Shown: positions 10,818-62,377 of the stretch, in pieces
How positions within the stretch are numbered: position 1 is the first letter of the stretch
Layout of the letters: the number at the start of each line of letters is the position of its first letter
Virus record (IMG/VR): IMGVR_UViG_3300042336_000327
Location: 62,001 to 126,000 of that record
Length of the DNA stretch: 64,000 nucleotides
Reading direction: 5' to 3' (one strand)
Source: an uncultured virus (IMG/VR IMGVR_UViG_3300042336_000327)
Lineage: Duplodnaviria; Heunggongvirae; Uroviricota; Caudoviricetes
Position numbers and translations under genes: made by a program
The notes under the pieces: generated by a model
What the model was told of the DNA's origin: nothing
What the model saw: only the letters and a program-made list of their open reading frames with translations
Databases searched by the model: none

Positions 10818-11789
10818 ATGGATTTGATTGACTCCAAGTACATTGGACTCGTTTCGTCACGCTTACAAAAGTTTAAGAGAGTCAAGGCAGATCTCTACAA
10901 CTTCCGCTGCCCACTGTGTGGCGACTCTCAAAAGAACAAAAATAAAACACGAGGATATATCTATCCCGTAAAGAATAACACAAACTTTAAGTGCCATAAC
11001 TGCGGAGCAAGTTTATCCTTTAATAACTTTCTCAAAGAGTTAGACCCTACACTTCATAAGCAATATACTCTTGAGAAGTTTAAAGAAGGACATACTGGTA
11101 GAAACTTTGTGGTTGAGGAACCCAAGTTTGAGTTTGCGAAACCAGTCTTCAAAAAGAAACTTGATTTACCCAAAGCATCAGAGAATCCTATTGCCAGAGA
11201 ATATCTGGAAAAAAGGAAACTCAATCCTGAAAAGTTTTATTTTGCTGACAAATTTAAGGAGTGGACGAACACTCAAAAAGTTACGTTTGACACTATCGGT
11301 AGGGATGAGAGTCGCATTATTATACCAATGTATGATACAGACTCCAACTTGATAGGTTTTCAGGGAAGAGCACTAGGTCCTAACCCTGTTAAATATATTA
11401 CTGTGATGCTTTCTGATGATTCGCCCAAACTTTATGGACTGGACCAAGTGGATTCTTCGGAACCCATTTACATTGTTGAGGGACCCTTCGACTCCACGTT
11501 TGTCAAAAATGCTGTTGCTATGTGTGGGTCCGACGTTGATATTAGGTCGTTTAATTGGAGCGATTATATTTACGTTTTTGATAACGAACCACGTAATCGA
11601 GAAATCGTCAACCGAATATCAAAAACCATCGACAGAGGCGACAAGGTGATTATTTGGCCAACATCAATCCAGCAAAAAGATATTAATGATATGGTTTTAG
11701 CTGGACTTAACGTTATGGATGTGTTAAAATCAAATACATACACAGGTCTAGAAGCAAAAATTAAGTTTAACAACTGGAAGAAAATATGA
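10818..11789 (+). CDS. gp61: DNA primase (gp61)
   Basis: Zn finger CPLCGD...CHNC, GFQGR, TOPRIM VEGPFDS, FDNE, KDIND. Confidence 0.96.
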   Translation: MDLIDSKYIGLVSSRLQKFKRVKADLYNFRCPLCGDSQKNKNKTRGYIYPVKNNTNFKCHNCGASLSFNNFLKELDPTLHKQYTLEKFKEGHTGRNFVVEEPKFEFAKPVFKKKLDLPKASENPIAREYLEKRKLNPEKFYFADKFKEWTNTQKVTFDTIGRDESRIIIPMYDTDSNLIGFQGRALGPNPVKYITVMLSDDSPKLYGLDQVDSSEPIYIVEGPFDSTFVKNAVAMCGSDVDIRSFNWSDYIYVFDNEPRNREIVNRISKTIDRGDKVIIWPTSIQQKDINDMVLAGLNVMDVLKSNTYTGLEAKIKFNNWKKI

Positions 11790-14083
11790 GCAACGGAACG
11801 AAAGTCGTTAAGAGAAATGGTAAAACTGAACCACTTGATTTAAATAAACTCCACGTTATGGTGGAAGAAGCCTGCAAAGACCTAGCAGGTGTATCAGCAT
11901 CTCAGGTAGAGATGCAATCAGGCATTCAATTCTATGATGGTATCACTACCGCAGAGATTCAGGAGATTCTGATTCGTTCTGCTTCTGACCTGATTGATCT
12001 GGATCATCCCAACTATCAATTCGTTGCTGCTCGCCTGCTTCTGTTCGCCCTCCGTAAGCAGTTGTTTGGTCGTATGCATGAATGCCCCACAGTTAAGCAG
12101 CACGTCCTTCGTGCCGTTGGTAGAGGTGTCTATGACCCAGAAATTCTTACCCTATACTCTGATGATGAGTTTGATAAACTTCAGTCGTTTATTGATCATA
12201 GTCGTGACTATCTGTTCACTTATGCAGGTCTACGTCAAGTCGTTGATAAGTACCTCGTGCAGGACAGAAGTTCTAACGAACTTTATGAGACGCCACAGTT
12301 TATGTACCTTTTGATTGCGGCGACAATCTTTTCCAAGTATCCTAAAGAAACACGTTTAGATTACGTTAGGAAGTACTACGATGCAATCTCCAAGCACAAA
12401 ATCAACATTCCCACACCTATCATGGCGGGAGTGCGAACTCCACTTCGACAATATGCTAGCTGTGTTCTTGTTGATGTTGATGACACCCTCGATAGCATCT
12501 TTAGTTCTGATATGGCTATCGGCAGATATGTTGCACAAAGGGCGGGTATCGGCATCAACGCGGGTCGCATCCGTGGCATCAACAGCAAAATCAGAGGCGG
12601 AGAAGTTCAGCACACAGGTGTTGTCCCTTTCCTCAAAAAGTTTGAAGCAACTGTCCGATGCTGCACTCAAAATGGCATCAGAGGTGGATCAGCAACTGTC
12701 CATTTTCCAATCTGGCACCAAGAAATAGAAGATATTCTAGTATTGAAAAATAATAAAGGAACCGAAGATAATCGTGTTCGTAAGTTAGACTATAGTATCC
12801 AAATCTCCAAACTGTTCTATGAACGCTTCATCCGCAACGAAGAGATTTCTCTCTTCTCTCCCCACGCCGTTCCTGGCTTGTATGATGCTTTTGGTACTGA
12901 TGGATTTGACGAGTTGTATGTTCGTTATGAACGAGATGAGTCTATTCCAAGAAAAACTATCGGAGCTCAAGAACTCTTTTTGGACCTCCTGAAAGAGAGA
13001 GCAGAAACAGGTCGTTTGTACATTATGAACATTGACCACTGTAACTCTCACTCATCCTTTATGGATAAGGTTGAGATGAGCAATCTGTGCCAGGAAATTA
13101 CTCTACCTACCAAACCAATTCAACATATTGATGACCCAAATGGTGAGATTGCTCTATGCATACTTTCTGCTATTAATGTTGGAAAAATTCGGGATAACGA
13201 GGATCTTGAAGTGCTTTGCGATCTTGCTGTTCGCTCTCTTGATGAACTTATTGATTTTCAAGGATACCCCGTCAATGCAGCAGAAATCGCCACCAGGGCA
13301 CGTCGTTCGCTTGGGGTAGGGTTTATTGGTCTGGCACACTATCTCGCCAAGCACGGCGAGCATTACGACGATCCTGGTGCTTGGAGACTGGTACATGAAC
13401 TTACCGAAGCATTTCAGTATTACCTAATTCAGGCAACTGTTAATCTTTCGAAAGAAAAAGGTGCTTGTGAGTATAGCAGCCGAACAAAATATGGCAATGG
13501 CATTCTCCCGATTGATACATACAAGAAGGACGTTGATGAAATTGTACCTAACGAATTGAAGTATGATTGGGAGCATCTTAGAGAGCAGGTACTCAAATAC
13601 GGGGTACGGAACTCAACATTGTCCGCACAGATGCCATCGGAGAGCAGTTCCGTTGTGTCAAATGCAACCAACGGAATCGAACCACCTCGCGGATACTTGT
13701 CCGTTAAGAAGTCGAAGAAGGGACCACTCAAGCAGATTGTTCCCCAGTATCAAACACTTAAGAACAACTATACGCTGCTGTGGGATATGCCTAGCAATCG
13801 CGGGTATATTCATATTGTTGCTGTTATGCAAAAATTCTTCGATCAAGCGATTTCTGGAAACTGGTCCTATAATCCAGAAAATTACCCAGATAATGAAGTT
13901 CCTACTTCAGTAATGGCACAGGACCTTCTAACTACATATAAGTACGGCTGGAAAACCAGTTACTATCAAAATACTTATGACCATAAGACTGATGAGGTTG
14001 AAGAAACCAAACAGTCTCTTGATAACTTAATTTCCGATATTCTAGACACGGAGGAGGAAGATTGTGAGTCTTGTAAGATTTAA
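11786..14083 (+). CDS. nrdA: Class Ia ribonucleotide reductase alpha subunit
   Basis: N-terminal ATP cone (VVKRNG), SCVL, SNLCQEI, KTSYY, C-terminal CESCKI. Confidence 0.98.
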   Translation: MSNGTKVVKRNGKTEPLDLNKLHVMVEEACKDLAGVSASQVEMQSGIQFYDGITTAEIQEILIRSASDLIDLDHPNYQFVAARLLLFALRKQLFGRMHECPTVKQHVLRAVGRGVYDPEILTLYSDDEFDKLQSFIDHSRDYLFTYAGLRQVVDKYLVQDRSSNELYETPQFMYLLIAATIFSKYPKETRLDYVRKYYDAISKHKINIPTPIMAGVRTPLRQYASCVLVDVDDTLDSIFSSDMAIGRYVAQRAGIGINAGRIRGINSKIRGGEVQHTGVVPFLKKFEATVRCCTQNGIRGGSATVHFPIWHQEIEDILVLKNNKGTEDNRVRKLDYSIQISKLFYERFIRNEEISLFSPHAVPGLYDAFGTDGFDELYVRYERDESIPRKTIGAQELFLDLLKERAETGRLYIMNIDHCNSHSSFMDKVEMSNLCQEITLPTKPIQHIDDPNGEIALCILSAINVGKIRDNEDLEVLCDLAVRSLDELIDFQGYPVNAAEIATRARRSLGVGFIGLAHYLAKHGEHYDDPGAWRLVHELTEAFQYYLIQATVNLSKEKGACEYSSRTKYGNGILPIDTYKKDVDEIVPNELKYDWEHLREQVLKYGVRNSTLSAQMPSESSSVVSNATNGIEPPRGYLSVKKSKKGPLKQIVPQYQTLKNNYTLLWDMPSNRGYIHIVAVMQKFFDQAISGNWSYNPENYPDNEVPTSVMAQDLLTTYKYGWKTSYYQNTYDHKTDEVEETKQSLDNLISDILDTEEEDCESCKI

Positions 14084-15248
14084 AACAGGTTTGGAGGAAA
14101 AATCAATGGTCGAATCAATGACCGTTTTTAATCCTCAGGAAGTAGATACCAAAAAGCAACCTATGTTTTTTGGACAACCACTGGGAATACAGAGATATGA
14201 TTCTTACAAATACCCAATCTTCGATAAACTAACCACACAGCAACTGGGTTACTTCTGGAGACCCGAAGAGGTTTCTCTTCAAAAAGATCGTAGCGACTAT
14301 CATATGCTACGCCCAGAGCAAAAGCATATCTTCACCAGCAACCTGAAGTATCAGGTGATGCTGGACTCAGTTCAGGGTAGGGGTCCTGGTATGGCATTTG
14401 CTCCATACTGCTCCCTTCCTGAACTGGAAGCGTGTATGAAGGTTTGGGAGTTTATGGAGATGATCCACTCCCGTTCATACACTTATATCATCAAGAATGT
14501 TTATTCGGACCCATCTGAAGTTTTTGATACGATTCTGAAAGAGGATCGTATTATGGAACGTGCCGTGAGTGTCACTCAGGCATATAACGATTTCATCAAC
14601 AGTGCCCAGCATTATGGTTCAACTAATGAATGGATTCATGCGTTAGAACAAGTACCATACGCACAAGAGGCAAGGTATGAACTCAAGAGAAAACTATTCA
14701 GAGCAGTTGCAAACGTTAATATTCTTGAAGGTATTCGCTTTTACGTCAGCTTCGCTTGTAGTTTTGCGTTTGGCGAACTCAAGCTTATGGAAGGAAGTGC
14801 AAAAATCATCTCACTGATTGCCCGTGATGAGAACCAACATTTGGTTATCACTCAGAATATTCTGAACAAATGGAAAGAGGGTGATGACCCTGAGATGGCA
14901 CGTATCTCCAAAGAAGAAGAGCAATGGTTTTACAAGACCTTTGAGAATGCTGTCAATCAAGAAAAACTTTGGGCAGAGTATCTGTTCAAGGATGGTTCTA
15001 TGATTGGTTTAAATGATAAACTTCTTCAGCAATATGTCGAGTGGATTGCCAATCGTAGAATGAAGGCAATTGGACTCAAACCACTTTATGATATTCCTGC
15101 GAAAAATAATCCACTTCCTTGGACTGAGCATTGGATCAGTTCTAAAGGTCTTCAAGTGGCGCCACAGCAAACGCAAGTGCAGTCATATATTGTTGGTGGT
15201 ATTAAGCAGGATGTTACCAAAGACTCTTTTGCTGGGTTCCAGTTGTGA
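14064..15248 (+). CDS. nrdB: Class Ia ribonucleotide reductase beta subunit with atypical Gln-rich tail
   Basis: FWRPEE, LDS, EMIHSRSY, LEGIRFY, RDENQH; tail reads APQQTQVQSY. GTG start after GGAGG. Confidence 0.97.
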   Translation: MSLVRFKTGLEEKSMVESMTVFNPQEVDTKKQPMFFGQPLGIQRYDSYKYPIFDKLTTQQLGYFWRPEEVSLQKDRSDYHMLRPEQKHIFTSNLKYQVMLDSVQGRGPGMAFAPYCSLPELEACMKVWEFMEMIHSRSYTYIIKNVYSDPSEVFDTILKEDRIMERAVSVTQAYNDFINSAQHYGSTNEWIHALEQVPYAQEARYELKRKLFRAVANVNILEGIRFYVSFACSFAFGELKLMEGSAKIISLIARDENQHLVITQNILNKWKEGDDPEMARISKEEEQWFYKTFENAVNQEKLWAEYLFKDGSMIGLNDKLLQQYVEWIANRRMKAIGLKPLYDIPAKNNPLPWTEHWISSKGLQVAPQQTQVQSYIVGGIKQDVTKDSFAGFQL

Positions 15249-15307
15249 TTGACATTAAGACTGAAATAGTGTATTATATAAATAATAATAGGTAAGTTCA
15301 GTCTTAA
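15249..15307 (+). promoter_or_regulatory. Sigma70 promoter (TTGACA-17-TATTAT), late promoter TATAAATA and an 11-bp inverted repeat next to the endonuclease start
   Basis: TTGACA 15249-54, TATTAT 15272-77, TATAAATA 15277-84; TTAAGACTGAA 15255-65 / TTCAGTCTTAA 15297-307. Confidence 0.8.
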
Positions 15308-15308
15308 A

Positions 15309-15923
15309 ATGAATAATTATATTCTTTACTACTACTTAAGGGAGGACTTTGGTTCTCCCTTTTATGTGGGATATGGGAAACCAAGAAGAATACACGCAAA
15401 ACATTTGAGAAGTAATGGTGCAAATCTATTACCACCAAGAGAAAGAAGATGGGTTGTAAAATCTGGTCTTACTAAAGAAGAAGCAATAGAGTTAGAAATA
15501 AAACACATAGCACTTTGGAAAAGAGAGTGTGATGGTGGTGTATTATTAAATCAAAATCTTGGTGGTGAAGGAAAACCTGGAGGACAAAAAACAATAGGTT
15601 TTGGTGGCAGAAAACACACCGAAGAAGCAAAGAAAAAAATAAGCGAAAAGGTTGCTGGTAAAAATAATCCAAGATATGGTGTTAAACTTTCACAAGAAAC
15701 AAGAAATAAAATAAGTCAAAATAGAGCACCAAAATTTGGAAAAGATAATCCAAACTCTAAAACTTGGAAAATCACTTCTCCAGAAAATAAAGAATATATT
15801 ATTGTTGGTGGATTAAAGAAATTTTGTAAATCTCAAAGTATTTCTTATGCAACAATGAATGCAGCAATACTTTATGACAGAAAAGGACCGAGAAAAAATG
15901 GATGGTCAATTGAGAAAATTTAG
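15309..15923 (+). mobile_element. Free-standing GIY-YIG homing endonuclease (Seg-like, NUMOD3 motif)
   Basis: LYYY...FYVG, R, E (AIELE), N (LLN) catalytic pattern; GRKHTEEAKKKISE NUMOD3-like helix. Confidence 0.85.
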
Positions 15924-16311
15924 AGTATCACTACCTGAAGATGAGTGTGTGATGAAACTTCAGGAGTATTGTAAGTTTTCTTCTACTTTACTGAAGATCC
16001 CTGTTATTAAAAAACCATTATGTATTGATGCAAACTGCCACAATAATGTAAATCATTATGTGAATACTTATGGCGGAGAAAAGATAAGTGGATACTATTT
16101 GATTACAGATACTGAAGATGAAACTTATGGATGTGCAATATATCATAGTATCTGGAAAAATACTTATGGAGATCTAGTTGATATAACTCCATTTGAGGAT
16201 GGTAGAGAATATAATATGTTTTCCGTTATGAATACTACAGAATATTACTCTGGGGTTGCATATGATGGAAAAAGATATAAATTATTAGAACCAGGACTTA
16301 ACATAATCTAA
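15898..16311 (+). CDS. Transglutaminase/papain-like Cys-His-Asp protein (putative deamidase)
   Basis: NCHNNV (Cys codon 16036), YHSIW, LVDITP. Start uncertain (ATG 15898 or TTG 15910); overlaps the endonuclease 3' end. Confidence 0.6.
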   Translation: MDGQLRKFRVSLPEDECVMKLQEYCKFSSTLLKIPVIKKPLCIDANCHNNVNHYVNTYGGEKISGYYLITDTEDETYGCAIYHSIWKNTYGDLVDITPFEDGREYNMFSVMNTTEYYSGVAYDGKRYKLLEPGLNII

Positions 16312-16472
16312 TGTTACCAAAGATACTTTCTCAGGATTCCAACTATGATGAATGGTGCGAACAGGAAATCCTGAACGCATATCAGGAAGCGGCAGAGTGC
16401 GATGAGTTTCTTTTTGGAGATTATGATTATTCCAAAGAATGGTTGGGTAAATGCAATGACGATGTGAAATGA
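16311..16472 (+). CDS. Small acidic 53-aa protein (MLPKILSQDSNYDEWCEQE...) whose 5' end is a relic copy of the nrdB 3' end
   Basis: Translated by hand; an alternative frame reads VTKDTFSGFQL*; terminator follows. Confidence 0.65.
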   Translation: MLPKILSQDSNYDEWCEQEILNAYQEAAECDEFLFGDYDYSKEWLGKCNDDVK

Positions 16473-16495
16473 GGGTCTTCGGACCCTCTTTTTTT
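16471..16495 (+). terminator. Intrinsic terminator GAGGGTC-TTCG-GACCCTC-T-run, abutting late promoter TATAAATA (16495-16502)
   Basis: Perfect stem with UUCG loop. Confidence 0.88.
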
Positions 16496-16530: not shown

Positions 16531-17841
16531 ATGTCTAGACTTACAGGTAATGAAGTTGCAAATATGATGGAAGCATATAGTGCTGTCTATGCTCCTCAAC
16601 AAGAAGAAGTTGTAGAAAATGTTGAGAAGATCGATGAAAAAATGGATGTATTTTCTACACCTGCTATGAAATCTGCACAACAACAATCTGCCACTCAACT
16701 TTTGACAGGTAAAAAACCACCAGCTAAACCAGATTATCTTAAACCAGCTGTAACTGCAGGAGCAGCAAAGTTCTTCACTAAACCAGGTGCTGAAACTGAT
16801 AAATCTTGGGAAGTCGCTAGACAAAAAGCTGGTGTATCAAAACCTACACGTCCAGCAGGTTCAGGTAATCCTCCAGCAGGTTCAGGTAATCCTCCAGCAG
16901 GTTCAGGGAATCCACCAGCAGGCACTAAAACCGCTCCTGCTGCCTCTTCAGTCGTTCTTGCCAAGCAAGGTGGTGTAGAAGGTAAATTAGATAAGGCAAC
17001 TGGTAAATTCACTGCAGGTGCCTTTACAGGTGCTGAGAAAGAGCGTTATGTTGCTCGTGGTGGTAGTGCTGCTCCTTCTGCACCAAAACCAGCGGCACCA
17101 GCACAACCAAAGATTAAACAAGATGTCGCTGATATTAAAGCAATGCAAACGGCTTCTCAGATGAGACAGGCAGGTGCAAATGTTACATCAGACCAATTAA
17201 AGACACCACCATCAACCGCTGTTAATACATCACAAGCGACCGCAGCAGCATCTAATCTTAAAGCACCAGACCCCGCCACAAAATTCTCACAGGGAACTGC
17301 TGCAACCCCTAAACCAGTAGAGAATAAACCAACAACAGGTTTTGATCTTGCTAAAAAGGGTGTAAATCTTCAATCCCAATCCTTTGATATATTTGATATC
17401 ATCAAGGGTCATCTTCTTGATGAGGGTTATGCCGAAACTGAAAAAGCAGCTCTTGCTATTATGGCAAATATGGGTGAAGGGTGGAAAAAAGAAATTCTTG
17501 ATGAGATTGCACCTGCATTACTTGCTGGAGGTGTGCTTGCTAGTGGTGCTTTAGCGGCTATGGCAGCAAAAAATAAAATTGACAGAAGCAATGCTGCCAG
17601 AGCAAATACTAATCCATTTGCAAATCAACAAACTAAACCACTTCCTAGCACTCCTTCACCATTTGCTAAACCAGCAAGTAAGGATGACAGTGGTAGATTA
17701 ACAACCTATGGTGCTGGCGGCGGTGCTGCAGCAGAAAAAACAGGTCAAACTCGTGCCCAAGTTATGCAGCAAGGTGGTAAGAATCTTGAAAATAAAAACA
17801 AAATCAAACCAGTAAATCAAGGAACAGATTTCGGTCGTTGA
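16531..17841 (+). CDS. A/P/K-rich low-complexity late protein (putative head-internal protein)
   Basis: Late promoter upstream; DIFDIIKGHLLDEGYA...ILDE segment; PAGSGNP repeats. Confidence 0.6.
   Translation: MSRLTGNEVANMMEAYSAVYAPQQEEVVENVEKIDEKMDVFSTPAMKSAQQQSATQLLTGKKPPAKPDYLKPAVTAGAAKFFTKPGAETDKSWEVARQKAGVSKPTRPAGSGNPPAGSGNPPAGSGNPPAGTKTAPAASSVVLAKQGGVEGKLDKATGKFTAGAFTGAEKERYVARGGSAAPSAPKPAAPAQPKIKQDVADIKAMQTASQMRQAGANVTSDQLKTPPSTAVNTSQATAAASNLKAPDPATKFSQGTAATPKPVENKPTTGFDLAKKGVNLQSQSFDIFDIIKGHLLDEGYAETEKAALAIMANMGEGWKKEILDEIAPALLAGGVLASGALAAMAAKNKIDRSNAARANTNPFANQQTKPLPSTPSPFAKPASKDDSGRLTTYGAGGGAAAEKTGQTRAQVMQQGGKNLENKNKIKPVNQGTDFGR
16852..16922 (+). repeat. Coding tandem repeat of 21 bp (CCAGCAGGTTCAGGTAATCCT), about 3.4 copies
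   Basis: Read directly; encodes PAGSGNP three times. Confidence 0.9.
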
Positions 17842-17948: not shown

Positions 17949-18398
17949 ATGAGTTATGAAAACCCTTGGAGATTCAATGGGGAAATTTTTGAGTCTTCTG
18001 ATATTCAAGATAATTTTGGTTTCGTTTATCATATTCACTGTAATAAAACTGGTCGTAGTTATATTGGTAGAAAGTATTTCTGGTCTTTCCGCACACCAAG
18101 AGGAAAATCTAGAAAAGTTAAGTCAGAGTCCGATTGGAAAAGATATTACGGCTCCTGTCCTGAACTCAAAGCCGATATTGACATTTGGGGAAAAGCATCC
18201 TGCGACAGAAGAATACTTAGCCTCCATAAAACAAAAGGACAGTGTAACTACGAAGAAACAAAACAGCTTTTCCTAAATAATGTGTTGATCGAGTCTCTTG
18301 ACGATGGGAGTCCAGCGTATTACAATAGTAATATCCTAGGACGCTACATGCGAAAAGATTATGGAAATTTTGGAAAAGACTCTGAAACAATCACATGA
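17949..18398 (+). CDS. GIY-YIG family nuclease (conserved T4-like type)
   Basis: GFVY...YIGRK, W..YYGS, YEE, YYN motifs. Confidence 0.8.
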   Translation: MSYENPWRFNGEIFESSDIQDNFGFVYHIHCNKTGRSYIGRKYFWSFRTPRGKSRKVKSESDWKRYYGSCPELKADIDIWGKASCDRRILSLHKTKGQCNYEETKQLFLNNVLIESLDDGSPAYYNSNILGRYMRKDYGNFGKDSETIT

Positions 18399-18552
18399 TT
18401 GGGCAGTTGATCGTATTCATACTCTCTGTGAAGAAAACTGTTTTGAAAATGCCCATGCGATTCAATCTGAGTTTAGTGAATGGTTGAATCCGAATATTCC
18501 AGAGCATGATATTTTCTCATTAGAGTTCATAGGAGAGGAAGATGACACTTGA
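18361..18552 (+). CDS. Hypothetical acidic protein
   Basis: ORF overlapping both neighbours. Confidence 0.6.
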   Translation: MEILEKTLKQSHDWAVDRIHTLCEENCFENAHAIQSEFSEWLNPNIPEHDIFSLEFIGEEDDT

Positions 18553-19213
18553 CCTTCACAACTTTTTTAAGTTTTACGACGAAAAAAATTCAAATCACGT
18601 AGCAGCAGTACAATGGTTAGAGGATAACCTGCCTGCTGAGTTTTTAGACGATGCAGAAACTGATTGGATTGGTATTTTTAGAACAAAACCACCAACTCCA
18701 GCAGTTCTTGAAGTTCCATATTTTAACCAAGTAGATAACTACAGAGATGCACATAGAACGTGTAACTCTTCATCGTGTGCAATGTGCCTTGCTTTCCTCA
18801 AGCCAGGAAGCATCAAAGGTGATGATGAGTATGTCAAAAAAGTATTTGCGATTGGTGACACGACTGACCATGCGGTACAGACAAAAGTTCTGGCAGGTTA
18901 TGGAGTTAAGTCACACTTTAGCTATAATCTTTCTTTTGCTGACATTGATAAGAGTCTTGATGCTGGGAAACCTGTTGTTATTGGTATCCTGCACCGTGGT
19001 CCTTTATCTGCTCCTACTGGTGGGCACATGTGTGTAGTCATCGGTAAGACACCAGATGGTAAAGGATATTATGTCAATGATCCATATGGTTCTTGCAATG
19101 ACAATTACACTGGTCCAGTAACAAATGGTAAGAAGACCATTTACACTAAGGCAATGCTGAAGCACCGCTGGTGTCCAGGAGGGAACGATGGCTGGGGAAG
19201 AATCTTCGATTAA
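18542..19213 (+). CDS. Peptidase C39-like cysteine hydrolase with N-terminal domain shared with the lysozyme
   Basis: VPYFNQ...TCNSSSCAM, GHMCVVIG, VNDPYG. Confidence 0.8.
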   Translation: MTLDLHNFFKFYDEKNSNHVAAVQWLEDNLPAEFLDDAETDWIGIFRTKPPTPAVLEVPYFNQVDNYRDAHRTCNSSSCAMCLAFLKPGSIKGDDEYVKKVFAIGDTTDHAVQTKVLAGYGVKSHFSYNLSFADIDKSLDAGKPVVIGILHRGPLSAPTGGHMCVVIGKTPDGKGYYVNDPYGSCNDNYTGPVTNGKKTIYTKAMLKHRWCPGGNDGWGRIFD

Positions 19214-19328
19214 TTTCAAGAGGAAAATCTTACAAAAGATTAAAGACCTCACAAATCACGGCAGACACGTAGAAGCACAACAACTTTATTCAAAGTATTT
19301 CGAAGGAGACAACAATGGCAAGAGTTGA
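19188..19328 (+). CDS. Hypothetical 46-aa protein
   Basis: Translated by hand (MAGEESSINFKRKILQ...); bridges the two lysin genes. Confidence 0.4.
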   Translation: MAGEESSINFKRKILQKIKDLTNHGRHVEAQQLYSKYFEGDNNGKS

Positions 19329-19983
19329 TTTACACAATTTCTTTCAGTTTTATGATGAAAGAAATCCTAACCATGTCAAGGCAGTTCAGTGGTTAGAAGA
19401 TAACCTACCAGTCAAGTATCTAGAAGATAACGTAGATTGGGCGGAGATTTTTAGAGGAAAAAAGACTAGTGCTGCACCAGCCCCTGCCGCTGCTGCAGCT
19501 CCTGTAACAGGTGGTGATGATGTCCCACAAATGGGCATTAAGTTAATCAAAGAGTTTGAAGGATGTCACCTAAAGGCATATCCTGACCCTCTTACAGGGG
19601 GACTTCCAATCACAATCGGTTGGGGTTCCACCCGCAAGAAAGATGGTTCAGCATTCAAACTTGGTGATACCCTTACACAGGCAGAAGCAGATGCACTTCT
19701 GATTGAACAGTGCAAGAAGGAGTTTCTTCCCGCATTACGCAAAATCCCATATTGGAGTGAAATGTCAGATGGAAAAAGAGGCGCTCTGCTCAGCTTTGCT
19801 TATAATCTCGGTGCTGGTTTCTACGGTGGCGATAACTTTAATACTATTACTAAACGCCTGAAGAATAAAGAGTGGGACTTAGTGCCCGATGCTTTATTCC
19901 TCTATCGCAATCCTGGTTCAAATGTAGAAGCAGGACTAGCACGTAGAAGAAAAGCAGAAGGCGAGGCTTGGAAAAAAGGATAA
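19315..19983 (+). CDS. GH24 lysozyme / endolysin
   Basis: LIKEFEG...AYPD...TIGWG, ALLSFAYNLG, GLARRRKAE. Confidence 0.92.
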   Translation: MARVDLHNFFQFYDERNPNHVKAVQWLEDNLPVKYLEDNVDWAEIFRGKKTSAAPAPAAAAAPVTGGDDVPQMGIKLIKEFEGCHLKAYPDPLTGGLPITIGWGSTRKKDGSAFKLGDTLTQAEADALLIEQCKKEFLPALRKIPYWSEMSDGKRGALLSFAYNLGAGFYGGDNFNTITKRLKNKEWDLVPDALFLYRNPGSNVEAGLARRRKAEGEAWKKG

Positions 19984-60319: not shown

Positions 60320-62377
60320 ATGACACGATTACTTCCCATATCAGAAGATGTTGAGATTGTTCTATCTCCAGAAACTCCTGTCATAGAGTATTCTCCAGAC
60401 CCTATTGATGAATATATTGTTGTTGTTGAGGATGCTGGAGATTGGGAAGAGATTCATGGTTACATCATCAATGAAAATGAGATTGATGGAATTCCAAATA
60501 GGGCAATACCCTGCATAAACACTCAAGAACATTCTCTTAGAACTTCGATTTATTTGATGAGTCAGGAAGAGGCAGAAGTTCTCAAGTCTCATCCTAAAAT
60601 TGAAAGTGTGGAATTGAATCCAGAAAAGTATCCGCAACCACAATCGACCGATACTCTAAGATATAAAAAACCAATTGCATTTAATAAACCTGAATTAGTC
60701 GCTGCTTTTGATACTGAGACAACTTATTTTCTAAATGAGACTCGTTCTAATTGGTCTCACTTATTTGTTACTAATCCCACGAGTTTGCCATTTAAAGGAG
60801 TTGGTGTTACTAGCACAACGTATGCTGAGAGTGATGTTGAATATTCTTTGACGGGTAGAGGAGTTGATGCAGTCATTATTGATTCTGGAGTTGCTCATTT
60901 GCATCCAGAATTTCAAAGTCCAGATGGAACTTATAGAGTTAAAGATGTAATTCTTGATGGTCCATATAAAGTTGATCCTGATTACTTTACAAGTAGGGGT
61001 TTAACTTATACTAAGATTGTGGATGGCGTGAATCTTGGAGTTGGTATTGTGACAACTGCAGCTGCTGCATGGTGGAGCACTGCAGCTAGTCGCTCTGCTG
61101 CGTTTCAAAGTTTAGGAACAGTTTCGGTAACTGCTTTATATACTGTTCCTCATGTAGCAACTAAAACTTCTAATGCGAGTAGTAATCAATTGGTTGATGG
61201 TCATGGGACTGCTTGTGCTTCTCAAATCGGTGGTAAATCTTTTGGATTAGCATTTGAGTGCAACTTATGGAATATTAGAATTTCTCTTAGTGGAGTAGGT
61301 GGATATATTGCTGGGTCATCAGCACTGGATATTTGTACTATTTGGCACCAGGCAAAAAGAATTGCTCAGAATGGAAATCCAGATCCTACGATTATTAATA
61401 ATAGTTGGGGTCAGACTTCAACAACTGGTAATACAAATGGTACTCCATATAGTCATGGATATCGAGGTGCAACATTAAGTTATACTGGCAATGGAAGTAG
61501 TTTCACTGTTCAGGCAAATGCTGGTGCTTGCAGAAATACAAAATCTTTTACTTATAATACTGGTGGGGGAACCGCTTTATCTGCTTATTCTGGCAGCGGT
61601 GAATATACTCCACATTCTGCAACAACAAGTGCTTCAGCAGAAAATGCCATTGCTGCTGGATGTATCGTTGTAACATCTGCAGGAAATCAAAATCAAAAGT
61701 TTTCTGATGAAACTGATGTAGATTTTAATAATTGGTATAGTTCCACAACGAATTATGTTAATCGTTGTGGGGGGGTTAGTAGAGGATTCACTGGCATTCA
61801 TGAGAGGAAAAAAGGAACTATACGAGTGGGTGCTTTAGATTGTTCTGTAGAGCCAGCAGATTCAAAGCAAGGATCTACTCCATATGCAATCAGGAGAGTT
61901 TGTTATTCTAACTCTGGTCCAATGATTAATGTTTGGGCACCTGCAGAAATGACCATGGCTGCAGGATATACATCCACATATGAAGATTTTGCGAGACAGG
62001 ATAATATAACTTTTTATGATACTTGGTTTAATGGCACCAGCTCTGCAGGACCAAATACTTGTTCAGCAATTGCTTTGTATCTTGAATCAAATCGAAAAGC
62101 AACGCAAGCAGATGTACATGAGTGGTTAGATAGACATGGAAGTGTAGAAATCAATTTGTCAGATCCATATCCAGACCCAAATTCTACGGGATATTGGTCA
62201 CAGACTTATAATGCTACTTTTGATTCTGCATCTAGTACTAATGATTCTTATAATGTTCGTGGTAATGGTAGTTTGAGAGGTGCTCCTAAGAAAGTCCTTC
62301 GAAACCCTTTTGCAACTAATCAGCAGAGTTCAATTTCTGGTGTCCAGATGTCTGGCATTTTATTCACCCAATCCTAA
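60320..62377 (+). CDS. Subtilisin-like (S8) serine protease
   Basis: IIDSG, GHGTACAS, NNSWG, SAGN, NGTSSAGP. Confidence 0.88.
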   Translation: MTRLLPISEDVEIVLSPETPVIEYSPDPIDEYIVVVEDAGDWEEIHGYIINENEIDGIPNRAIPCINTQEHSLRTSIYLMSQEEAEVLKSHPKIESVELNPEKYPQPQSTDTLRYKKPIAFNKPELVAAFDTETTYFLNETRSNWSHLFVTNPTSLPFKGVGVTSTTYAESDVEYSLTGRGVDAVIIDSGVAHLHPEFQSPDGTYRVKDVILDGPYKVDPDYFTSRGLTYTKIVDGVNLGVGIVTTAAAAWWSTAASRSAAFQSLGTVSVTALYTVPHVATKTSNASSNQLVDGHGTACASQIGGKSFGLAFECNLWNIRISLSGVGGYIAGSSALDICTIWHQAKRIAQNGNPDPTIINNSWGQTSTTGNTNGTPYSHGYRGATLSYTGNGSSFTVQANAGACRNTKSFTYNTGGGTALSAYSGSGEYTPHSATTSASAENAIAAGCIVVTSAGNQNQKFSDETDVDFNNWYSSTTNYVNRCGGVSRGFTGIHERKKGTIRVGALDCSVEPADSKQGSTPYAIRRVCYSNSGPMINVWAPAEMTMAAGYTSTYEDFARQDNITFYDTWFNGTSSAGPNTCSAIALYLESNRKATQADVHEWLDRHGSVEINLSDPYPDPNSTGYWSQTYNATFDSASSTNDSYNVRGNGSLRGAPKKVLRNPFATNQQSSISGVQMSGILFTQS

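Follow-up and report, generated by a model that had tools for sequence, protein, structure and literature searches.

The stretch of DNA analysed here (hereafter the window) comprises 64,000 nucleotides (nt), positions 62,001 to 126,000, of the IMG/VR record IMGVR_UViG_3300042336_000327, a T4-like cyanomyovirus of 136,982 bases that is about 72% complete. Within it lie the genes of a class Ia ribonucleotide reductase (RNR), nrdA and nrdB, followed on the same strand by a mobile cassette, and our subject is the 3' end of nrdB, where three glutamine codons occupy positions of the C-terminal tail that encode glutamate in related phages, among them the position of E350 in the beta subunit of E. coli. 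The variable unit that carries these codons extends from about 15137 to 16310 and consists of the recoded nrdB tail, a leader with a promoter-like site and a hairpin, an endonuclease with a GIY-YIG-like N-terminus and NUMOD3, and a protein of 137 amino acids with a Cys-His-Asp signature, here called ORF150. The three changes are linked to this endonuclease cassette, a cause that an earlier sequence-only reading of the window had missed.

The nrdA and nrdB genes

The alpha subunit gene nrdA (11786..14083, plus strand) encodes ATP-cone, all-alpha and barrel domains, and the beta subunit gene nrdB (14106..15248, plus strand; 380 amino acids, with an alternative GTG start at 14064) adjoins it across a gap of about 20 nt. 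NrdB falls in the Ribonuc_red_sm family (PF00268, E 1.2e-54 in Pfam), its residues 5-380 match E. coli beta chains (phmmer against PDB, 7ai8_A, E ~1e-121), and its best matches among named phages are those of the Synechococcus phages S-SKS1, S-SRM01, DSL-LC03 and S-T4, at 85-87% identity. In the alignment with 7ai8_A the columns of W48, D84, E115, H118, Y122, E204, E238 and H241 are identical in the two proteins (E. coli numbers; these are the di-iron ligands, the radical Tyr122 and Trp48), which bears out the view of the sequence-only reading that the key residues outside the tail look intact; nor is any column decaying among the NrdBs of the Gln type. The one class Ia feature that NrdB lacks is Glu at the E350 position, which is taken by Gln355 (CAA, 15168-15170). 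We still class the protein as NrdB because all other features are present and because the E350 position varies in other subclasses of the family (PMC8463856). No second RNR beta gene was found in the record, about 72% complete as it is.

At several loci retrieved by the tail pattern described below (L083, L089, L098 and others; L numbers denote loci) nrdA and nrdB are about 660 nt apart, as against about 20 nt in the window. By analogy with mobE in T-even phages, an extra open reading frame (ORF) has probably been inserted between the two genes at these loci.

Three glutamine codons in the NrdB tail

In the nrdB frame, nucleotides 15165-15188 read CAG CAA ACG CAA GTG CAG TCA TAT, or Q-Q-T-Q-V-Q-S-Y, and the Gln codons at 15168-15170, 15174-15176 and 15180-15182 (plus strand), equivalent to E350, E352 and position 354, each correspond to a Glu codon GAR in which the first G has become C. 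The tail aligns with E. coli beta without gaps (phmmer against PDB, 7ai8_A), with Q355 at E350, Q357 at E352, Q359 at S354 and Y361 at Y356, and 19 residues follow the tail Tyr in both proteins. The codons with C at 15168, 15174 and 15180, and a register set by a Tyr 19 residues from the C-terminus, are as the sequence-only reading had given them. Two of the three Gln stand for Glu residues of E. coli, and the third stands for a Glu that is specific to cyanophages, as in QETEVESY. The cultured phages S-SKS1, S-SCSM2R and DSL-LC03 indeed have APQETEVESY, as the sequence-only reading had given for cyanophages, and the closest cassette-free relatives of the window (L001-L007, NrdB 96-98% identical) have QETEVESY, so Gln is not the normal residue among relatives that lack the cassette.

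The Gln at the E350 equivalent is a real feature of a natural population. In each of three independent lake DNA runs that are not flagged as a possible source of the record (X16, X17 and X18) a single contig extends from 15107/15119 to 16340/16360 with 0 differences from the window, and no letter other than C was found at 15168, 15174 and 15180, where G had been named as the outcome that would overturn the observation; an assembly or sequencing error as the cause is ruled out by these runs. The stretch 14900-16400 occurs exactly in lake and freshwater metagenomes, the same allele is found letter for letter in many separate IMG/VR records, and it is unchanged in at least 18 lake DNA runs from 18 studies dated 2016-2024.

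Among the 120 protein clusters closest to the window NrdB, Gln is found at both 350 and 352 in 9, E350 is combined with Gln at 352 and 354 in 3, and the remaining 108 have Glu. No fewer than four distinct tail backgrounds show the Gln changes, and each has its Glu counterpart: QETEVESY and QQTQVQSY, QETEISSY and QQTQISSY, QESEITSY and QQSQITSY, and QEVEIEQY and QQVQIQTY. Over 78 nt of the tail-coding sequence we took the bases conserved in 95% or more of a set of 75 distinct Glu-type sequences and compared them with 79 distinct sequences carrying Gln at position 352 (Gln-352). The two groups differ consistently only at the first base of codons 350, 352 and 354, which is more than chance would give. 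At codon 350 the G of the Glu type is kept in 34% of the Gln-352 sequences and replaced by C in 66%, at codon 352 it is kept in 0% and replaced by C in 100%, and at codon 354 it is kept in 1% and replaced by C in 76%. Of the three positions, that of the essential Glu, 350, varies most: about one-third of cassette carriers keep E350 (26 of the 78 with an endonuclease).

These patterns bear on an alternative in which the changes have no role and are either polymorphisms of a donor dragged along by co-conversion or plain errors. In the window's population, silent differences flanking the Gln codons between 15137 and 15212 do pass on together with the cassette, as hitch-hiking would have it. Among carriers in general, however, the flanks vary freely and only the three codon first bases are constant, the same changes recur in at least four tail backgrounds, each mirroring its Glu-type counterpart, and error is excluded by the independent lake runs. 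Carriers with GAR at codon 352 are not common. We regard neutral hitch-hiking or artefact as very improbable.

A mobile cassette that rewrites the end of nrdB

The contig graphs of the lake runs fork at about 15136 (range 15107-15148) and rejoin at 16311, and we take the variable unit to be approximately 15137-16310 on this ground. A loose contig end after 15136 in X17 spells another allele, which is cassette-free, and in X17 and X18 the loose ends that precede 16311 connect a cassette-free tail straight to that point; together these ends represent the cassette-free, Glu-type allele of the same phage population. The first part of the unit is the recoded 3' end of nrdB (15137..15248, plus strand), delimited by the contig forks and a drop in identity: besides the three Gln codons, many silent sites set it apart from the cassette-free allele found alongside it, and its identity to the cassette-free loci L001-L005 is 75-81%, compared with 89-93% in nrdB just upstream. 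The last 38 nt of nrdB are present twice, once as the live end of the gene (15211..15248) and once as a remnant of the ancestral 3' end (16311..16348; both plus strand), as alignment with cassette-free relatives and, for the second copy, the loose contig ends reveal. The remnant is near-identical to the nrdB 3' end of the cassette-free L003 and L007 and now merely begins a small downstream gene of 53 amino acids (16311..16472, plus strand), an ORF whose start in cassette-free relatives lies within the final 38 nt of nrdB; it is followed by a terminator-like hairpin (16471-16488).

The cassette leader (15249..15308, plus strand) contains a promoter-like site of the sigma-70 kind (TTGACA-17-TATTAT, 15249-15277) and the element TATAAATA at 15277-15284, which sits in the loop of a hairpin (15255-15307) that stops 2 nt 5' of the ATG of the endonuclease. 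The hairpin has a folding energy of -17.2 kcal/mol (z -3.6; 0 of 200 shuffled sequences fold as well), and TATAAATA is found at the same offset in 40 of 71 distinct leaders, where the sequences of the stem vary while pairing is kept. Next comes the gene of the free-standing homing endonuclease (15309..15923, plus strand; 204 amino acids), which has a NUMOD3 domain (Pfam, E 7e-14) and matches the PHROGs family phrog_314, 'homing endonuclease' (E 3.4e-16). Its N-terminus is GIY-YIG-like, reading Y-I-L...Y-V-G-Y-G with Arg residues after it; fused relatives match PF22945, a LEM-3-like GIY-YIG family, and jackhmmer connects the free-standing protein with this fused form. The ORF150 gene (15898..16311, plus strand) overlaps the end of the endonuclease gene; its reading frame is open from 15859, and the conserved start, MDG, is at 15898. 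In a freshwater metatranscriptome (X19) contigs cover 15294-15795 and 15810-15979, and none at least 90% alike covers approximately 15009-15293.

Comparison of loci shows the cassette on the move. From the middle of nrdB through the cassette, L224 and L226 match the window at 99-100% identity, whereas the 5' part of their nrdB is only 89% identical. L225 and L229 carry an ORF150 gene that is 98.7% identical in DNA to that of the window next to an endonuclease of a different type, and judging by these sequences the two cassette genes are reshuffled independently of each other. The endonuclease ORF of L095 and L087 lacks its own stop codon and continues into what is left of the original Glu tail (ETEISSY...), the live tail upstream being QQTQISSY; this puts the right-hand boundary of the element at the E350 codon, and the element supplies the rewritten copy of the tail. 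Presence and absence among close relatives together with mosaic flanks, by which the mobility of homing endonucleases is judged, are both found here, and the cassette is mobile as well as linked to the Gln codons. L107 and L139 resemble L225 and L229 in this: all four pair an ORF150 gene 98.7% identical in DNA with an endonuclease of the different type, about 38% identical in protein.

Gln tails and the cassette occur together

The linkage of Gln tails to the cassette was seen however the loci were sampled. In a set of 80 loci selected for the similarity of their NrdB, those with an endonuclease and ORF150 downstream are exactly the 3 that have Gln tails. A DNA search with the pattern QQxQxxxY..GG.K gave 103 matches in IMG/VR, all of them NrdB tails, in proteins 47-100% identical to that of the window; four seeming exceptions to the linkage in this set prove to have a single ORF running from the nrdB stop, in which the 137-amino-acid domain is fused ahead of a GIY-YIG domain. 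The pattern QExQxQxY gave 32 further stretches, again all NrdB, with an ORF150 gene downstream in 31 and a contig that ends too early in the other. Sampling by ORF150 alone gave 80 loci, 75 of which have nrdB directly upstream, comprising 52 of the QQ type, 21 of the QE.Q type and 2 of the Glu type (L248 and L276).

The 286 loci with a complete tail reduce to 184 distinct sequences, 108 with Gln-352 and 76 with Glu. Among the Gln-352 alleles, 78 have both ORF150 and an endonuclease, 5 have ORF150 only, none has an endonuclease only, none has neither, and 25 are undecidable, as the contig ends. Among the Glu alleles, 67 have neither gene, 2 have the cassette, none has ORF150 only or an endonuclease only, 6 are undecidable, and the one other has an unrelated NUMOD-like match 2.1 kb away. 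Counted in distinct sequences, all 83 of the decidable Gln-352 alleles thus have ORF150, compared with 2 of 70 Glu alleles.

This association is not mere inherited sameness, because on trees built without the tail the two traits change repeatedly and track together. In an IQ-TREE phylogeny of 145 distinct NrdB cores each trait (Gln-352 and the cassette) changes 31 times, and in 12 independent pairs taken on supported branches the cassette follows Gln-352 in approximately 11 and goes the opposite way in 0 (sign test, p ~0.001). A FastTree phylogeny of 156 cores requires 33 changes, compared with 44-61 when the labels are shuffled.

No cultured phage with the cassette was found, given the results for its three parts in 50,697 cultured or GenBank phage records, a collection that may lack records near the window's genome: ORF150 had no tblastn match, endonuclease matches were all below 45% identity, and no tail was more than 88% identical to that of the window. 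Titles and abstracts on homing endonucleases, nrdB and cyanophages yielded no description of such a cassette.

Immunity from the endonuclease as the probable origin of the Gln codons

In our judgement the Gln codons probably arose as immunity from the endonuclease, as the position and nature of the changes suggest. On this reading the endonuclease would drive the gene conversions by which the cassette spreads in T4-like cyanophages and in other phages. Its target would be the tail-coding sequence that does not vary in cassette-free nrdB, at about the boundary of the Q349 and E350 codons, and the GAR to CAR changes of the rewritten tail would destroy that target. As a Glu codon admits no silent change at its first two bases, a carrier would escape self-cleavage only by changing a residue, and Glu to Gln (GAR to CAR) would be the mildest residue change open to it. 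Phage homing endonucleases often recognise sequences that code for residues critical to function, and MobE and Hef are known to target nrdB (PMC2988022).

Several observations weigh against this explanation or leave it incomplete. At L248 a full Glu tail (QETEVESY) stands beside an apparently complete cassette, which does not fit simple immunity. L276 likewise keeps all three Glu beside a cassette; it differs at codons 353 and 355, which from the sequence may be another way to spoil the site. Because about one-third of endonuclease carriers keep E350, the change at that codon is not required for immunity, and immunity gives no account of why Q350 persists in most carriers. Nor does immunity alone predict that Gln-352 and ORF150 should persist in the five distinct alleles without an endonuclease. 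The window endonuclease itself has no match to the Pfam GIY-YIG models at E up to 1, and both the target and the immunity are inferred from the nucleotide pattern and from the junction at the E350 codon.

RNR function with a Gln tail

Whatever the origin of the Gln codons, they fall in a part of NrdB on which turnover depends in E. coli. E350Q is said to be inactive there (Ravichandran et al. 2017). E350 and Y356 of E. coli beta are described as essential for turnover (PMC8463856). The beta tail is positioned through bonds of E350 to K154 and S647 of alpha and to waters, and substitution of E350 disrupts radical transfer (PMC11482829). A literature search pairing E350Q with ribonucleotide reductase returned nothing.

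The Gln-type enzymes nevertheless look like enzymes in use. Of the 200 NrdB columns that are invariant in 73 Glu-type proteins, only 355 and 357 switch fully in 36 Gln-type proteins. Identity of Gln-type NrdBs to that of the window is 63-100% in the column alignment, and by tblastn Gln-type lineages go down to 47%. In NrdA, K155 and S643 (K154 and S647 of E. coli) are invariant in 24 Gln-type and 43 Glu-type proteins, and no compensating change was found, the largest difference in column frequency being 0.47 (17 Gln-type and 43 Glu-type distinct sequences). Since nrdA and nrdB of the Gln type are free of decay and the two contact residues are kept, the RNR goes on being used, and its alpha subunit remains adapted to a Glu-like partner. 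One Gln-type NrdB has a gap of 12 residues at columns 217-228 within the conserved ACSFAFGELKLM stretch.

One way to reconcile these facts, to which we give a fair hearing as a possibility though not an even chance, is that Gln is tolerated as it is: the tail would position Y356 well enough, and ORF150 would be a subunit or regulator of the endonuclease, or an unrelated enzyme. The occurrence of both E350 and Q350 in near-identical tails beside endonucleases about 90% identical is what near-neutrality would give, and the fusion of ORF150 to GIY-YIG domains in approximately 27 of the best 150 representatives of its family agrees with a role beside the nuclease. Yet E350 is described as indispensable to turnover in E. 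coli, with radical transfer disrupted when it is replaced (PMC8463856 and PMC11482829), NrdA retains the Lys and Ser that contact it, and tolerance leaves unexplained why ORF150 is under purifying selection where the endonuclease is gone.

It is also conceivable, but in our view improbable, that the cassette cripples the RNR and that the phage lives on host or salvage nucleotides, the Gln tail being a tolerated defect. Homing elements can spread despite a cost, and the trend towards E350 in carriers without an endonuclease (below) fits a cost of Q350. This explanation has to contend, however, with the absence of decay of nrdA and nrdB in Gln-type lineages down to the lowest NrdB identities given above, with a window allele that is unchanged across the lake runs and studies counted above, and with the fact that a single C to G change would restore E350 and is evidently compatible with the cassette, yet two-thirds of carriers keep Gln.

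The ORF150 protein and possible repair of the tail

ORF150 belongs to a family of 1135 representatives (E up to 0.001). Among the best 150 of them, about 27 are fused ahead of a GIY-YIG domain, about 11 have a C-terminal SEC-C motif, and 2 follow zinc-finger/DUF723 modules. Four residues are near-invariant in these 150 representatives: Cys47 (148 of 149), Asn50 (146 of 149), His83 (148 of 148) and Asp95 (146 of 148). In the predicted model (mean predicted local distance difference test score, pLDDT, of 88) Cys47 is at the N-terminus of a helix, and the His and Asp are on the strands that follow; this order of Cys, His and Asp, with the Cys at a helix N-terminus, is a feature of thiol hydrolases of the papain or transglutaminase kind, and on the model the residue pattern looks catalytic. 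Database searches placed the protein in no known class. Pfam has no family for ORF150 or for any of 29 aligned members, PHROGs places it only in a family of unknown function, and Foldseek found nothing in PDB at E up to 0.001. In a wide fold search with VIA the best matches (Z 3.9) were beta-alpha-beta-beta-beta modules of the glyoxalase kind, and a second search gave Z of at most 3.8; comparison with TglA gave Z 3.1 (root-mean-square deviation, rmsd, 2.9 over 75 residues) and with PeiW Z 2.8 (rmsd 2.7 over 70 residues). BFVD yielded no matches beyond the GIY-YIG fusion form (E 2.4e-7) and phage proteins of uncharacterised function, and those in a protein atlas were YunG-like families at 0.85-0.86, which is weak and below its meaningful level.

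ORF150 is never missing from a decidable Gln-352 allele and the endonuclease is missing from five, and for this reason we favour a role of ORF150 that is connected with the Gln tail and not with the nuclease. In those five alleles ORF150 directly follows the nrdB stop, and between two of them (L140 and L186) its ratio of nonsynonymous to synonymous substitutions (dN/dS) is 0.075 at a dS of 1.69, where silent sites are saturated. The same trio, again with no endonuclease, is found on a contig from a Flavobacteriaceae metagenome-assembled genome (L300), which carries nrdA, an nrdB with the tail APQQTQIDSY and an ORF150-like gene. At L300:2760-2960 the nrdB body and the Gln-type tail are in different frames, with an apparent frameshift just before the tail that could be an assembly error or a real break.

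A role of this kind could be repair, in which ORF150 would deamidate the tail Gln to Glu after translation and restore the function of E350. The cassette would then bring both the damage, by recoding, and the cure, and the phage would become dependent on it; such repair would complement immunity and compete only with tolerance. We hold this idea tentatively and lean towards doubting it, although much in the distribution of ORF150 agrees with it: its presence in every decidable Gln-352 allele and the lack of any allele with an endonuclease but no ORF150, its retention under a low dN/dS (L140 and L186) in the five alleles that lack the nuclease, the Flavobacteriaceae trio, and the near-invariant Cys47, Asn50, His83 and Asp95, with Cys47 at the start of a helix in the model. 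NrdA, moreover, keeps the Lys and Ser that contact E350 (contacts as described in PMC11482829), and none of its columns co-varies with tail type.

The points against repair begin with the fold, since no deamidase, papain or transglutaminase match was obtained (best the glyoxalase-like modules, ahead of TglA and PeiW), and the protein lacks a Pfam family. Its fusions to endonuclease, SEC-C and zinc-finger modules could mean a nuclease-linked or general role, and two cassettes (L248 and L276) adjoin Glu tails. Carriers that have lost the endonuclease also lean towards E350, with 4 of 5 keeping it compared with 26 of 78 of those with the nuclease (p 0.055, the cases not being independent), which hints at a cost of Q350. 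The full picture, in which a selfish cassette recodes an essential Glu for its own protection and carries a new family of Cys-His-Asp enzymes that convert the Gln back, so that the phage is addicted and the enzyme outlasts the nuclease, is accordingly put forward as a speculative one that we think rather less likely to be right than wrong. A literature search pairing a deamidase with ribonucleotide reductase and a homing endonuclease found none.

Comparison with known systems

It is textbook knowledge that T4 has free-standing endonucleases beside RNR genes and shows co-conversion and marker exclusion, and the leader, with a putative late promoter inside a hairpin, appears to resemble the control of T4 endonuclease genes. 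The cassette is like the intronless homing of T4-like phages (SegF, SegG, and MobE/Hef at nrdB) in that an endonuclease gene lies beside an essential conserved gene, is present or absent among close relatives, and is co-converted with flanking markers, and in that RNR genes are favoured and the codons of critical residues are usually recognised (PMC2988022 and PMC2790892). It differs from them in three respects: the cassette allele has amino-acid changes in the radical-transfer tail, E350 included, in place of silent polymorphisms or an intron; the cassette brings its own recoded duplicate of the host gene's 3' end; and a second, enzyme-like protein always accompanies it. The mobE insertion in nrdA of Aeromonas phage Aeh1 is similar in that a critical part of a class Ia RNR gene is affected and function is retained (PMC2988022 and PMC3653736), but there nrdA is split into two pieces with its residues unchanged, whereas here nrdB is whole and its tail is rewritten. 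The Gln tails correspond in position to the E350 substitutions of E. coli beta2, with the tail aligned gap-free; unlike those, Gln is common in nature in these phages, in which nrdA and nrdB are conserved.

Gene-encoded Gln that is matured to Glu is known from chemoreceptors (CheD/CheB) and from Pup (Dop). The relation of the repair idea to these cases is one of analogy only: the gene specifies Gln where function requires Glu, and a dedicated enzyme has its gene close by. ORF150 has no relation in sequence or fold to the CheD/CheB or Dop enzymes.

What is new here is the non-silent rewriting of the radical-transfer tail, E350 included, the duplicate tail supplied by the element, and the obligate enzyme-like passenger. 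For RNR enzymology, the 79 distinct Gln-352 tail sequences, about two-thirds of them also Q350, with alpha partners unchanged, amount to a natural experiment on E350 that bears on tail positioning and radical transfer. For the study of mobile elements, the self-immunity of an endonuclease appears to need the non-silent recoding of a critical residue of the host gene, and the endonuclease is accompanied by a widespread, uncharacterised, enzyme-like domain. Should it be true that ORF150 repairs or compensates the tail, this would be a new form of dependency between element and host and a new family of protein-modifying enzymes.

Neighbouring genes

Downstream of the cassette on the plus strand lies an ORF of 149 amino acids with a GIY-YIG-like N-terminus (17949-18398). 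Small ORFs similar to it were seen 1.5-2 kb downstream of nrdB at the distant loci L095, L104, L113 and L131, and it appears to be a conserved phage gene outside the cassette. Between it and the cassette is the gene of a 436-amino-acid protein rich in Pro, Ala and Gly (16531-17841, plus strand), with three tandem PAGSGNP units. Two neighbouring paralogues further on (18542-19213 and 19315-19983, plus strand) have an N-terminal portion of about 45 residues in common and differ in their C-terminal halves, and the second of them is lysozyme-like by eye.

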